From: a virus
Taxonomy: Duplodnaviria > Caudoviricetes
Virus record (IMG/VR): IMGVR_UViG_2651870089_000025
Coordinates: 1 to 64,000 of that record
Direction: 5' to 3' (one strand)
DNA: 64,000 nucleotides
Shown here: piece after piece, positions 5,772 to 12,893 of the stretch
Position numbering within the stretch: the stretch's first letter is position 1
Layout of the letters: each line of letters begins with the position of its first letter
Notes under the pieces: model-generated
Databases searched by the model: none
The model's input: only the letters and a program-made list of their open reading frames with translations
What the model was told of the DNA's origin: nothing
Made by a program: the position numbers and the translations under genes

Positions 5772-7481
5772 TTATGCGGGAGGTTCGCCACCGGGTGCGT
5801 TTTCAGCACCGCTAATTGGAGATTCTGCGCCTGGCTCGACACCTATACCTTCATCTCCGCCTCCACCTAAGTCTGGGGTTTCAGGTGGTGCTAAGTCAGC
5901 AGGTTCTGAAGGTCTAACGCCTACATCAATCATGCCAGGAGACATATCTGTCAATGGATGATCTTGTCCTGATTCTTCGACAAACATGCGTTCATTTTGT
6001 ACAATTTCGTCGTCAGTCCAACCAAGGTAACGTTTTAATGCATAGCGTTTGCTTATAAATGGTATTTGTACTGCTTGACCAAATACATTTAATTGTGCGG
6101 CATCAACTTCAATTTGTCGATACTTGCCAAAGTTTTGTGGCTCGATAAACACAAGTTCAAATAAGTTTGCTTCAACTTCAATACCTTTGTGTTTGCAGAA
6201 CATTTTAAACTCATGATCTAACCATGGCGCAACTAATTGTTGCAGTCGTTTACAATAGTTTGTAAAACGATACTCTTGAATAAATGCTGTACCAACTCTA
6301 CCGTCGTTGTATACAGCAGTACCATCTTCAGGGCCAGTAGGCAAATAAGAACTTGGAACACGTAAACCACGTAGTAGTTTATTGTTAAAGTATTTCAAGT
6401 CATCAATTTGTCCTAGGTTTTCACCGCCTGGAAGCGTTTCAACTTTAGAACCTCTGCCCTCAGAAGTTTGAGCAAAAAAGTAATCCTCAATCATTGATAG
6501 TGGATTATATGCGGCATCCATAATGTTTGCGCCGCCTCCTGTTTTGTTAGGAATACGCTTTTGATGGATTTCGTTTTTAACTTGCTCAATAAACGCCATT
6601 GCTCTTGTGCGAGGCATATCACCTACATCAATATAAAACACACGTCGTTCTGGTGCACGTTGTACACGATAAATTAAAATAGCATCCTCAAGCATTTCTT
6701 TTTGCTTGAAGATTTTATAAATTGGTTCTAGTATACTTGTGCCAAATGGCCAAGCATTGTCCAAGCCTTCGCTTAAACTTAAATGTATGATATGATCAGC
6801 AGAAATAGGAATTGCTGTTGAGAAACCCGAACCTGATGCTAAACCAAAGCCCTCTTGGCTTCCTACTACTGCACCGCCTTCTCTGCCCCTAACAGTTGGA
6901 ATAGCAGGGTTTGCTTTACTTGAGTAGTCTCTGCCTGAAAACATGTTGCTGGCAACAATTGATTGCATGTTTAAGTCCAAGTCTTTAACATGATATTCTT
7001 CAGTCTTTTTGCCATTGCCTTCATCAACGACAACTTTTTCTACTTTTGAAGGATCAATCCAATATAGTTTCCACGTTTCAGGATCTCTAATAAAAAATTG
7101 ATCGCCATATTTTAAAACACTACGTACCATGCGCCATGTGCGTCTATCTAAATCATTTAGATTGCACCATTGTTTTAATGCGCTTTGTAGCAACTTTACT
7201 TCTGTTTCTGTTGCGTCGTTTTTGTAATGTATTTCGTATGGTAGTTCTGTTGCTGAATCTGTTTGTGTACAAAACTCAGCAATAATGTCTAGCGCCGCAT
7301 TGATCTCACTATCCATGTCCATTTGGTCGTATTGCATATAACGTTCCAAACGATTTGGGGGACCAGTATATACTTCTGGTAACCAGGATGAATATTTATT
7401 GTTAAAAGCAGCCGAGTTTCCTTCTGCTTTTCCGCGATAGTTTGTTTGATCGTATACTTGAAAGTGTTTGCGCCAGCTCAT
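5772..7481 (-). CDS. gp20: Portal protein (T4 gp20 family)
   Basis: Motifs LEDAILIYRVQRAPERRVFYIDVG, EDYFF, GRGSKVETLPGGENLGQIDDLKYF and LRVPSS. Confidence 0.97.
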   Translation of the reverse strand: MSWRKHFQVYDQTNYRGKAEGNSAAFNNKYSSWLPEVYTGPPNRLERYMQYDQMDMDSEINAALDIIAEFCTQTDSATELPYEIHYKNDATETEVKLLQSALKQWCNLNDLDRRTWRMVRSVLKYGDQFFIRDPETWKLYWIDPSKVEKVVVDEGNGKKTEEYHVKDLDLNMQSIVASNMFSGRDYSSKANPAIPTVRGREGGAVVGSQEGFGLASGSGFSTAIPISADHIIHLSLSEGLDNAWPFGTSILEPIYKIFKQKEMLEDAILIYRVQRAPERRVFYIDVGDMPRTRAMAFIEQVKNEIHQKRIPNKTGGGANIMDAAYNPLSMIEDYFFAQTSEGRGSKVETLPGGENLGQIDDLKYFNNKLLRGLRVPSSYLPTGPEDGTAVYNDGRVGTAFIQEYRFTNYCKRLQQLVAPWLDHEFKMFCKHKGIEVEANLFELVFIEPQNFGKYRQIEVDAAQLNVFGQAVQIPFISKRYALKRYLGWTDDEIVQNERMFVEESGQDHPLTDMSPGMIDVGVRPSEPADLAPPETPDLGGGGDEGIGVEPGAESPISGAENAPGGEPPA

Positions 7482-10694: not shown

Positions 10695-11549
10695 ATGTCA
10701 AACAGTAATAACCCGCTACAGGGATATTTGCGTAATCCTAAACTATATATTATAGTCCCTAGCGGTGGTAAGTTTTCAAATTTAGAAACTATTAGCGGAA
10801 TTTCAGGCGAAATTCCTATTTACCCGTTAACAAGCATGGATGAAACTATGTTGCGTAATCCTGATGCATTGCTTAATGGCGAAAGCATGGCAAATGTTAT
10901 TAAAAGTTGTACCGGTTTAACTAACGCACACGAACTCACATCCAATGACGTAGATGTAATTCTATTGGCAATACGTTTTGCAACGTATGGTGATGAATTA
11001 GAACTTACTCTTACATGCCCTGCATGTTCAGCGACAGTTGAAACAACTATAAGCATCGAGCCTATCTTAGAAACTGTTACCCCATTAGAAGACCATTATG
11101 ATGTTACGTTAGACAATGGCTTAATTTGCGATTTAAAACCTTATACATTTAAAGACAGCCAAAAGGCCGCACTAGCCGCGTTTAGAGAAACAACAGAACT
11201 TAACAATTTAATTAATTCTGATTCAGACGAACTGGCTCGCCTTGCAACATTTAATAAAAGTTTTGTTGCAATGGCAGAGTTAAATATTGAAATTCTCAGC
11301 AACGCTATTACTAAAGTTACTATTCCTCAAGATAACGGGGAACCGGTTGAAGTAACAGAACACGAGTATATCGCAGAATGGGTTAGAGGCATTTCAAAAA
11401 CACATGCAGATGTTATTATTGATAAGTTAAACGAAATTAATGAGTTGGGTATTGACCGTGATGTTGATACTACTTGCACAGAATGCGGGCATGGATTTAA
11501 AACAAGAGTGGAGTTTAACCCCTCAAATTTTTTCGATCTCGCCTCTTGA
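10695..11549 (+). CDS. Baseplate hub assembly protein/tail chaperone (T4 gp26-like)
   Basis: Motifs YIIVPSGGK, D..LLAIRFATYG, two CxxC (CPAC, CTEC) and a C-terminal NFF. SD GGAGA. Confidence 0.8.
   Translation: MSNSNNPLQGYLRNPKLYIIVPSGGKFSNLETISGISGEIPIYPLTSMDETMLRNPDALLNGESMANVIKSCTGLTNAHELTSNDVDVILLAIRFATYGDELELTLTCPACSATVETTISIEPILETVTPLEDHYDVTLDNGLICDLKPYTFKDSQKAALAAFRETTELNNLINSDSDELARLATFNKSFVAMAELNIEILSNAITKVTIPQDNGEPVEVTEHEYIAEWVRGISKTHADVIIDKLNEINELGIDRDVDTTCTECGHGFKTRVEFNPSNFFDLAS
11528..11534 (+). other. Putative -1 programmed frameshift slippery site (T TTT TTC; overlapping A AAT TTT)
   Basis: Codons AAT TTT TTC lie near the end of the 10695 ORF. The -1 frame is open from there into ORF 11546-11764. 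Confidence 0.6.
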
Positions 11550-11764
11550 TGGAAGACAAGTCTGAAGTAGTAGCATACCTACAAAATTTAAATAGCGAAG
11601 CAAGAGGCATAGAAAAATCAATATTTGAAATATGCTGGTATATGCGCGGCGGCATAACACTTGAAGAAGCATGGCAGTTAAGTTACGATCAACGTACAAC
11701 TATTTCTGAAATTATTAGTAAAAACATTGAGCGCACAAAAGAATCCGGCTTGGCACTATTATAA
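11546..11764 (+). CDS. Small gp51-like/tail-chaperone C-terminal ORF
   Basis: Motif ICWYMRGGITLEEAWQLSYDQR. Overlaps the upstream stop (TGATG) in the -1 frame. Confidence 0.75.
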   Translation: MMEDKSEVVAYLQNLNSEARGIEKSIFEICWYMRGGITLEEAWQLSYDQRTTISEIISKNIERTKESGLALL

Positions 11765-12312
11765 ACTCAGAGTGATTCATTTGTTTATTACATCATATTA
11801 GGAATGCCTTAACAGGCATTGTAAGAAGTTTCATTTCATTCACTTCTTTATATCTTCTCTTTTAAGTTTCATGTAGATTGTTTGGTCAGAAGGAACCTGT
11901 ATACAGGTTCCATCTGTTCTAATGCTTCATGTGAGTTCGCCTAGCCTAGACCGGAAGTAGGTGTTTTTCTGCTACACAACGGGCTCTAACCTTTCCCTAC
12001 CTACGTTGACATCGCTTTCGCTACCCGCAGCCTCGTTCCCATTGCATGCGGTTTTTATGTGTAATATGCAGTTTCTCGATAGCCAACATGCTACCTATGC
12101 TAATACTTAACTTCTTTAGACTTGAATTACCAAGGGAAGTGTCTCAGCATGTACGTGTGCTCCTCTCGGATGCTTTTTCCACAGCGGAATTTTAACTGGC
12201 CCGCCAACCTTGTGTGTTGGTTTCAAAAACAATTTGCCGGTTGGCGGAATGTGATGTGTAGTTGCCTTTTAACGTGCCTGTAAAATTTTATTTGACTTTA
12301 TATTTTTTATGC
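11765..12312 (-). ncRNA. Candidate large structured non-coding RNA (family not identified)
   Basis: ORF-free ~550-nt segment, GC-richer than its flanks, with many nested helices and two GNRA tetraloops on the minus strand. A consensus sigma70 promoter points into it. Confidence 0.7.
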
Positions 12313-12320
12313 TATATAAT
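12292..12320 (+). promoter_or_regulatory. Sigma70 promoter for the resolvase gene
   Basis: TTGACT (12292-12297), 17-nt spacer, TATAAT (12315-12320). Confidence 0.75.
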
Positions 12321-12347
12321 AATACACTTATATTCATATGATGTCAA
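12319..12347 (-). promoter_or_regulatory. Sigma70 promoter driving the candidate ncRNA
   Basis: TTGACA (12347-12342), 17-nt spacer, TATTAT (12324-12319). Confidence 0.75.
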
Positions 12348-12362
12348 CCGTTTTTTTAATAT

Positions 12363-12893
12363 ATGTCAGGAACTAAATCAAAAAATAAAGGCAAGACGTT
12401 TGAGAGAGAAATTGCTAACTTTCTTTCAGAAACATACGACGCAAGTTTTACAAGGGTTCCTCATAGCGGTGCCTTTGTTGGAGGTAAAAACGTTGTTCGC
12501 AAAGAGCAACTAGACGAAGAGCAAATCCGTGCGTTTAAAAGTGATATTATTCCGCCAACCGGCTGGGCTAAACTTAATATAGAATGTAAGAACTATGCTG
12601 ATTTTCCGTTTCATGCACTACTCCGCGTAAACGATATTCCATTGTTAGATACATGGATATCGCAAACATTAGAAGCCGCAGACGAAGGCGACTTTAATTT
12701 AATTATTATGAAGTTTAATCGCAAAGGCCGGTTTGTAATGTTTGAAAAGGATGCTTCGGCTAGCCGCATAGGCTTTCGGCAGCACTTAAATCCTGGGTTA
12801 CAACATGCACATTACAAAGGGTGGCTTATAGTTGATTTTGATGAGTTTTGGGTAGCAAATAAAGACTTAGTTAGGGAATTGTCACAAGGGTAA
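12363..12893 (+). CDS. Holliday junction resolvase (PD-(D/E)xK, Hjc-like)
   Basis: Motifs SKNKGKTFEREIA, RVPHSGA, SDII and IECKNY. Confidence 0.85.
   Translation: MSGTKSKNKGKTFEREIANFLSETYDASFTRVPHSGAFVGGKNVVRKEQLDEEQIRAFKSDIIPPTGWAKLNIECKNYADFPFHALLRVNDIPLLDTWISQTLEAADEGDFNLIIMKFNRKGRFVMFEKDASASRIGFRQHLNPGLQHAHYKGWLIVDFDEFWVANKDLVRELSQG

Follow-up and report, generated by a model that had tools for sequence, protein, structure and literature searches.

Comparative sequence analysis indicated that the sole long intergenic gap of the window (the 64,000-nt stretch of Caudoviricetes DNA analysed here, positions 1 to 64,000 of IMG/VR record IMGVR_UViG_2651870089_000025) encodes, on its minus strand, a member of a family of structured non-coding RNAs that had not been described before. 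The gap (11765-12362, 598 nt) was bordered by a 72-aa ORF ending at 11764 and the PDDEXK_15 endonuclease gene starting at 12363, and all other intergenic gaps of the window were about 200 nt or less. Only ORFs of 38-53 aa were found within it, and its GC content was 0.45-0.47 at 11900-12199 compared with 0.32-0.39 in the flanks. The initial annotation, made from the sequence alone, had pointed to the same isolated, ORF-poor and GC-rich gap and to the minus-strand promoter directed into it, and these observations were all reproduced. The single-sequence fold energy of the gap was ordinary in comparison with shuffles (z = -1.48 for the minus strand and -1.20 for the plus strand); the case for an RNA beyond chance was therefore built on conservation and covariation, not on fold energy.

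Relatives of the endonuclease led to contigs in which the gap sequence was matched by nhmmer (E = 2e-10) beside baseplate genes. Viral contigs were scanned twice and metagenome contigs once for the core pattern, which gave 108 and 112 stretches, respectively, and an nhmmer profile search returned more than 110 copies with E-values from 1e-23 to 1e-145. Full-length copies were extracted in 180 cases, 71 of which were non-redundant at 96% identity, and the core length across copies had a median of 393 nt (range 315-477). Many positions of the RNA were invariant in the family, whereas the neighbouring proteins were merely 42-65% identical. The window copy aligned over its full length in both family alignments (A2 and A3) and contained every consensus helix except the weak P10 and the family terminator. 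The contigs carrying the RNA were exclusively of lytic jumbo-phage type, and some were very long (343, 229, 182, 162, and 155 kb); the window's own record has 107.5 kb and an estimated completeness of 29%. Near-identical DNA was found in sequencing runs of marine, estuary, and salt-marsh metagenomes. The carriers are jumbo phages from marine, estuarine, and salt-marsh habitats that are uncultured and whose recombination and baseplate genes are T4-like. The window's gp46-like protein had its best match, at 51.5% identity, in the jumbo Pseudomonas phage PA5oct, with other jumbo phages next, and PA5oct and its kin would, judged by gp46, be the nearest cultured relatives of the carriers.

The 71 copies were aligned with structure-blind MAFFT (alignment A2), and the structure was counted on this alignment with a model of 85 pairs in 16 helices, which was built from the top mutual-information pairs and inspection. 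The top mutual-information column pairs were Watson-Crick covariations (GC33/CG20/UA3, CG36/AU16/GC3, UA32/CG24, and UA35/CG19). In the proposed structure 91.2% of the cells were paired, compared with 34-42% when the 3' partners were slid by 1-3 columns. Compensatory changes occurred at 51 of the 85 pairs (653 cells), against 26-35 pairs after sliding and a mean of 38 after shuffling, and the covariation score was 0.315 against 0.05-0.08 for the slid partners; none of 500 shuffles reached the observed values. Both pseudoknots were supported, PK1 with 99.3% of cells paired and three compensatory pairs and PK2 with 92-99.5% and six. RNAalifold, applied to the 3' domain by itself, recovered P6, P6a, P8, and the closing triplet, and the weakly paired helices were P10 (72.5%) and P4a (59.3%). 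The RNA was assigned to the minus strand of the window because G-U combinations outnumbered A-C combinations by 381 to 109. GNRA loops and UUCG terminator loops also read correctly only on this strand across the family, as had been noticed for the GNRA loops of the window copy. The indel lengths relative to the relative L171 fell into the classes 1, 2, and 0 modulo 3 in the ratio 364:175:60, and since the indels keep no reading frame, the element was taken as not protein-coding. A large structured non-coding RNA on the minus strand, as first proposed, was therefore borne out by the covarying relatives. The size of ~550 nt proposed at first was corrected: the conserved core spans about 370 nt, and the transcript would have roughly 450-510 nt if it starts near 12311.

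Table 1. Features of the RNA, its surroundings, and related loci. Positions are those of the window unless another locus is named; pair counts are from the family alignment.
Feature	Position	Strand	Evidence or remark
Conserved core	11867-12239 (about 370 nt)	minus	nhmmer and alignment of 71 non-redundant copies
A/T-rich 5' leader, window-specific	12240-12311	minus	Not alignable; relatives have the end of the GIY-YIG ORF here
Pseudoknot PK1	12215-12220 with 12083-12088 (loop of P5)	minus	CG46/AU19/GC3, CG60/UA10, AU50/GC20
Hairpin P2	12201-12205/12183-12187	minus	99.4% paired; 4 of 5 pairs compensatory
P3	12180-12182/12155-12157	minus	UA63/AU8; encloses the variable hairpin P3a/b
P4	12144-12150/12097-12103	minus	96.5% paired; UA43/CG26, GC36/AU31, UA40/CG23; variable insert inside
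Hairpin P5	12091-12095/12078-12082	minus	95.7% paired; four compensatory pairs
Pseudoknot PK2	12068-12071 and 12058-12063 with 11969-11978	minus	GC41/AU23, UA42/CG23, AU50/UA15; crosses P6
Hairpin P7	12025-12029/12047-12051	minus	98.6% paired; GC35/CG29/UA4, CG48/UA21
P9, minimal GAAA hairpin	12014-12021	minus	Closing pairs covary: AU26/GC21/UA4, CG28/UA22/AU13
P6	11999-12004/11957-11962 and 12006/11955	minus	99.6% paired; 6 of 6 even in the most divergent members
P6a, inner hairpin of P6	11995-11997/11981-11983	minus	Found independently by RNAalifold
Weak hairpin P10	11932-11935/11919-11922	minus	72.5% paired; loop carries twin motif copy 1
Twin motif copy 1	11925-11936	minus	In P10 loop; changes in concert with copy 2
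Hairpin P8 (palindrome)	11888-11915	minus	10 bp; 94.5% paired
Twin motif copy 2	11867-11878	minus	Single-stranded 3' tail
Two window-specific hairpins	11803-11848	minus	Sit where relatives have the UUCG-loop terminator
Sigma-70-type promoter TTGACA-17-TATTAT	12347-12319	minus	Consensus scan 11/12; predicted start near 12311
Promoter TTGACT-17-TATAAT of the PDDEXK endonuclease gene	12292-12320	plus	Near-consensus
T4_baseplate-family gene	10695-11549		Followed by the 72-aa ORF
PDDEXK_15 endonuclease gene	12363-12893		Inverted relative to the upstream nuclease gene of the relatives
Nuclease-slot loci	window 12363-12893; L187 10495-10944; L234 8520-9017		
Second small hairpin	L004 1661-1685; L012 5869-5925 (two copies); L171 about 6683-6699		

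The covariation points to a fold with a 5' domain (P2-P5) tied together by PK1 and a 3' domain consisting of P7, P9, P6/P6a, P10, and P8 (Table 1). The 3' domain was nearly invariant and tied to the centre by PK2, and P6 with its inner hairpin P6a formed the nearly invariant heart of the family. Within P3, the variable hairpin P3a/b carried a GAGA loop in the window and showed compensatory changes at all five pairs across the family. The P7 loop of about 18 nt was conserved, and many relatives had, in place of P9, an inserted hairpin that can reach about 90 nt. The triplet 12008-12010 may pair with 11885-11887 and so close the 3' domain in the modelled structure. P8 had a stem of different sequence in the most divergent clade and was an unrelated hairpin in L004. 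In the clade of L012, both strands of PK2 were wholly different in sequence and still complementary. The 5' domain (P2-P5 and PK1) of L012 (5511-5668) was swapped for other hairpins, with P7, PK2, P6, P8, and the twin motifs kept; the 3' half looks essential because this clade keeps only that half. The 5' strand of P6 could alternatively pair with the stretch just before twin motif copy 2 (11870-11878) in 97% of the cells. This pairing was rejected as the main fold since it was lost in divergent members that keep P6; it may represent a conformational switch.

Five of the helices drawn in the initial annotation were kept across the family: 12159-12163/12168-12173 (P3a/b region), 12025-12029/12047-12051 (P7), the GAAA hairpin 12014-12021 (P9), 11957-11962/11999-12004 (P6), and the palindrome 11892-11911, which was extended to the full P8 at 11888-11915. 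For the helix 12086-12092/12146-12152, the 5' strand was placed correctly but the partner was not, because the covariation pairs 12144-12150 with 12097-12103. Both pseudoknots as well as P2, P3, P5, and P6a had been missed. The inner helices at 12110-12140 and the hairpins at 11803-11848 fell in variable regions. No U run followed either of the latter on the minus strand, and the 3' end of the RNA in the window is uncertain. In the 5' leader, the 9 nt at 12239-12247 can pair with 12201-12209, but this 9-bp helix was specific to the window and competes with the conserved P2. One metatranscriptome contig extended into the leader as far as 12296.

The two ACAUGAA sequences reported at first, which lie on the minus strand at 11868-11875 and 11926-11933 and flank P8, belonged to a 12-nt motif present in two copies around P8. 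Among the 22 sequences with a non-consensus 7-mer, 16 carried the identical change in both copies, and the concerted change was counted in at least eight separate cases. A change of CAUG to CGUG occurred in at least four separate lineages, one of which was 93% identical overall to a relative with the consensus motif, and five further variants were likewise common to both copies. A covariance model of the 3' domain detected the distant relative L004 (E = 5e-4, filters off), in which both motifs, the UUCG terminator, and the 5' start are retained and surround a hairpin that is unrelated in sequence. Base pairing of one motif copy with the other was rejected, as the changes were identical instead of complementary, also outside the short palindrome. 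No third strand covarying with the motif was found inside the RNA, and the motif was not enriched elsewhere in the window. The twin motif suggests that a single partner reads both sites, that one activity cuts twice, or that strands are transferred.

In the usual gene order, an Mre11-like gp47, a Rad50-like gp46, a small ORF, and a GIY-YIG nuclease gene preceded the RNA on the same strand, and the upstream nuclease was a 149-aa SegE-type GIY-YIG protein in 50 of 57 loci. Beyond the RNA, most relatives had variable genes followed by the convergent 72-aa ORF and a gp51-like baseplate gene. In 37 of 70 relatives the GIY-YIG ORF extended about 30 nt into the RNA, covering the 5' strand of PK1, so that ribosomes finishing this ORF would unwind that strand. 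The stop codon in these 37 relatives (L171, 6229-6290, and 36 others) was a UAA inside the RNA. At the other end, all 8 pairs of the relatives' terminator hairpin covaried, at least 7 of the 8 stem pairs were formed in 46 of 71 copies, the loop was CUUCG in 33 relatives, and about 6 of the next 12 nt were U. A sigma-70-type promoter at the equivalent place was found in 3 of 50 relatives, compared with 2 in a control stretch. The dedicated promoter of the initial annotation thus held for the window but not for the family, in which at most these 3 of 50 relatives had one, no more than the control. A recurrent TTGAC about 104 nt upstream of the RNA in the relatives was rejected as a promoter element; it belongs to codons conserved in the GIY-YIG gene, and its spacer is 23 nt long. 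In the relatives, the RNA appears to be produced as the last part of the transcript of the upstream nuclease operon.

The surroundings of the RNA were exchanged in several lineages. PDDEXK_15 took the place of the GIY-YIG gene in the L012 and L004 clades as well as in the window, where the nuclease gene was also inverted. Precisely in the window, whose RNA can no longer be transcribed together with the upstream operon, a near-consensus promoter precedes the RNA. This promoter and that of the PDDEXK gene, both near-consensus and of sigma-70 type, overlap back to back at 12292-12347 and may compete for polymerase. In the most divergent clade the RNA lay among unrelated genes, beside a DNA methyltransferase gene. 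The orientation of the RNA towards the baseplate genes was kept even when the nuclease gene was swapped or inverted. The context swaps and the window promoter argue that the RNA is a module of its own, transcribed in one direction regardless of what lies upstream. Near-identical pieces (12114-12296) and copies from the relatives were present in assemblies from three metatranscriptome studies. These assemblies held the flanks too at similar depth and their contigs carry no strand or end information, for which reasons the pieces do not show expression.

The explanation we favour, and consider probable, is a new RNA family made either as an operon tail or from its own promoter and acting in trans on one partner. 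In most relatives, the RNA would be the last part of a gp47-gp46-small ORF-GIY-YIG transcript ending at the UUCG-loop terminator, and in the window it would be driven by its own sigma-70-type promoter. The compact folded RNA would then act in trans: the single-stranded motifs of identical sequence, one on each side of P8, would be offered to a single sequence-specific partner, for which a protein dimer or a nucleic acid or nuclease present in two equivalents could be considered. It might serve as a scaffold, a decoy, or a precursor, presumably in the early-to-middle phase of infection in which the recombination genes are expressed. The trans role, with twin sites presented to one partner, is our best guess from the anatomy of the RNA.

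Because the relatives show no promoter of their own for the RNA, it might act on the nuclease mRNA in cis only, a reading that ranked first among the others. In that case the 3' untranslated region of the nuclease operon mRNA would contain the RNA as a cis-acting element without a trans role, which blocks 3' exonucleases, controls termination, or couples the end of GIY-YIG translation to folding. The upstream ORF, which in 37 of 70 relatives ends over the 5' strand of PK1, and the place of the RNA at the operon end, beside a terminator, agree with such an element. We nevertheless regard it as unlikely, since the window copy has its own promoter and no upstream ORF, the most divergent clade sits among unrelated genes, and near-invariant loops with two pseudoknots over ~370 nt far exceed the usual stabilisers and terminators. 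A self-processing ribozyme, which would cut itself from the operon transcript or cut at both motifs to free a ~60-nt hairpin RNA, came second and seems improbable. The conservation and double-pseudoknot architecture of the RNA are at the level of ribozymes, identical sites lie on either side of a conserved hairpin, and the 5' end is embedded in an ORF; however, there was no similarity to any Rfam ribozyme family, and no internal guide strand covaried with the motifs.

Lower again ranked a role in replication, as a structured primer transcript or an R-loop-forming origin RNA, with the repeats and the palindrome acting as DNA sites. The element adjoins recombination and replication genes and the baseplate cluster, direct repeats surround an inverted repeat, and the T4 origin oriF lies in uvsY near the genes of the baseplate proteins gp25, gp26, and gp51. 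Yet the covariation and strong G-U bias over 16 helices reflect selection on the fold of one strand and not on duplex DNA, the core is the GC-richest part of the region with no A/T-rich unwinding stretch, and there are two repeats only, which together make this reading very improbable. A template RNA for a polymerase that transfers strands between identical repeats ranked last and is scarcely credible: strand transfer enforces exactly such repeat identity, as in the at least eight concerted cases, but no RVT_1 gene was present in the window's record or in five other partial RNA-carrying genomes, and the 54-67-nt unit between the motif copies had no triplet periodicity and no frame open across the family.

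Searches for known RNAs were consistent with the reading of a new family. Rfam 15 gave no match at gathering score for the window and ten relatives, and at E-values up to 10 there were only chance snoRNA-like matches, in the element of the window and in L171. The covariance models of ROOL (RF03087) and GOLLD (RF01998) stayed below gathering in the window and the 10 relatives, and neither model matched the element, whether from the window or from L171, when E-values up to 10 were admitted. ARAGORN found no tRNA or tmRNA in the whole window, and tmRNA, RNase P RNA, and tRNA were also without an Rfam match. A group I or group II intron was rejected, as there was no Rfam match and no interrupted gene around the element; in the window the RNA lies between its promoter and a convergent gene's 3' end, and its neighbours in the relatives are variable unrelated genes. 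The initial annotation had likewise seen no hallmarks of tmRNA, RNase P, or group I/II introns. HEARO/IscB omega RNA, retrons, and other guide RNAs linked to nucleases or reverse transcriptases were rejected for lack of an Rfam match, and the neighbours of the RNA were GIY-YIG, PDDEXK_15, and baseplate genes instead of IscB, TnpB, or reverse transcriptase. By blastn, three versions of the element had no match in 50,697 GenBank phage records, a set that may lack entries for the window's own genome or its close kin; a degenerate pattern of the invariant core had 0 matches in 185,579 prokaryote genomes (one per species), and the gp51-like protein used as bait recovered no relatives in viral contigs. 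No description of such a jumbo-phage or marine-phage RNA was found in the literature. The suggestion that the RNA might form a new class was strengthened by the missing Rfam match, including to ROOL and GOLLD.

ROOL (roughly 580 nt) and GOLLD (roughly 800 nt) are often carried by phages and prophages, and assembly into RNA-only homo-oligomeric cages is a criterion of membership in these classes. Like them, the gap RNA was recognised by comparative analysis, resides in phages, and is large, highly conserved, and built of many helices, but it matched neither in sequence or structure and is smaller (about 370-480 nt). Unlike ROOL and GOLLD, it was not next to tRNA genes, had two pseudoknots and the twin motif, and was confined to lytic-type jumbo-phage contigs (0/185,579 prokaryote genomes). 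It thus resembles ROOL and GOLLD in kind only and is a strong candidate for a new class of large viral RNA. Bacterial and phage RNAs derived from 3' UTRs have in common with the RNA of most relatives the position at the tail of an operon transcript, the overlap with the upstream stop codon, and the intrinsic terminator, whereas the gap RNA is far larger and more structured, has its own promoter in the window, and occurs in unrelated gene contexts. The phi29 pRNA is also a phage-encoded structured RNA with short, single-stranded, co-evolving loops, and its function depends on two loops complementary to each other; the motifs of the gap RNA are in contrast identical and not complementary, and neither a link to packaging genes nor a sequence match was found. 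ColE1 RNA II and the RNAs of T4 oriF and oriG are similar as structured RNAs of several hundred nucleotides with a host-type promoter near replication or recombination genes, but no origin features were found for the gap RNA, and its conservation is that of a compact tertiary fold and not of a hybrid-forming primer. Repeats used in strand transfer are known from the defence-associated reverse transcriptase DRT2, telomerase, and retroviral R regions. In the DRT2 non-coding RNA and telomerase RNA, as in the gap RNA, identical short repeats bound a unit beside a pseudoknot and their identity is maintained, but no reverse transcriptase and no coding or fixed-length unit was found for the gap RNA.

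Large conserved structured RNA classes are rare (ribosomal RNA, RNase P, group I/II introns, tmRNA, OLE, ROOL, GOLLD, and raiA), and the earlier classes of large RNA each opened new biochemistry. The constraint on the gap RNA, with well over a hundred copies, two pseudoknots, and long invariant loops, is typical of ribozymes and ribonucleoprotein cores. It is conceivable, though somewhat short of probable, that the family forms a new class of large double-pseudoknotted phage RNA, being a ribozyme, an RNA-only assembly, or a ribonucleoprotein core, in which the twin motif marks a new mode of recognition or processing; if so, this mode could be, for example, the release or strand transfer of a ~60-nt hairpin unit. 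The confinement to uncultured coastal jumbo phages suggests that RNA serves a function in giant-phage infection which is seen in none of the cultured models. The concerted twin motif provides a concrete, testable handle on the mechanism, and the size of about 370-480 nt, together with the compact variants, suits chemical probing and cryo-EM.

Further observations concerned the neighbouring genes. The slot after gp47-gp46 was filled by unrelated nucleases, namely SegE-type GIY-YIG, PDDEXK_15, or, in PA5oct, RusA, which looks like non-orthologous replacement of a junction-resolving enzyme. In PA5oct (L234 9017-10531; record 75666-77180), about 1.5 kb lay between the resolvase and baseplate-hub genes, annotated only with hypothetical ORFs of 39-50 aa. 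This syntenic region had no similarity to the RNA by nhmmer, cmsearch, or Rfam, and the four non-coding RNAs reported for PA5oct map elsewhere in its genome (PMC7318152); the stretch could contain an unrelated non-coding element. A second small conserved hairpin, absent from the window, occurred in most relatives tens of nucleotides past the terminator. It had a covarying stem of 4-5 bp and a loop of 12-13 nt (GAGCG-NU-AGCGA) and may be a regulatory site for the next gene.
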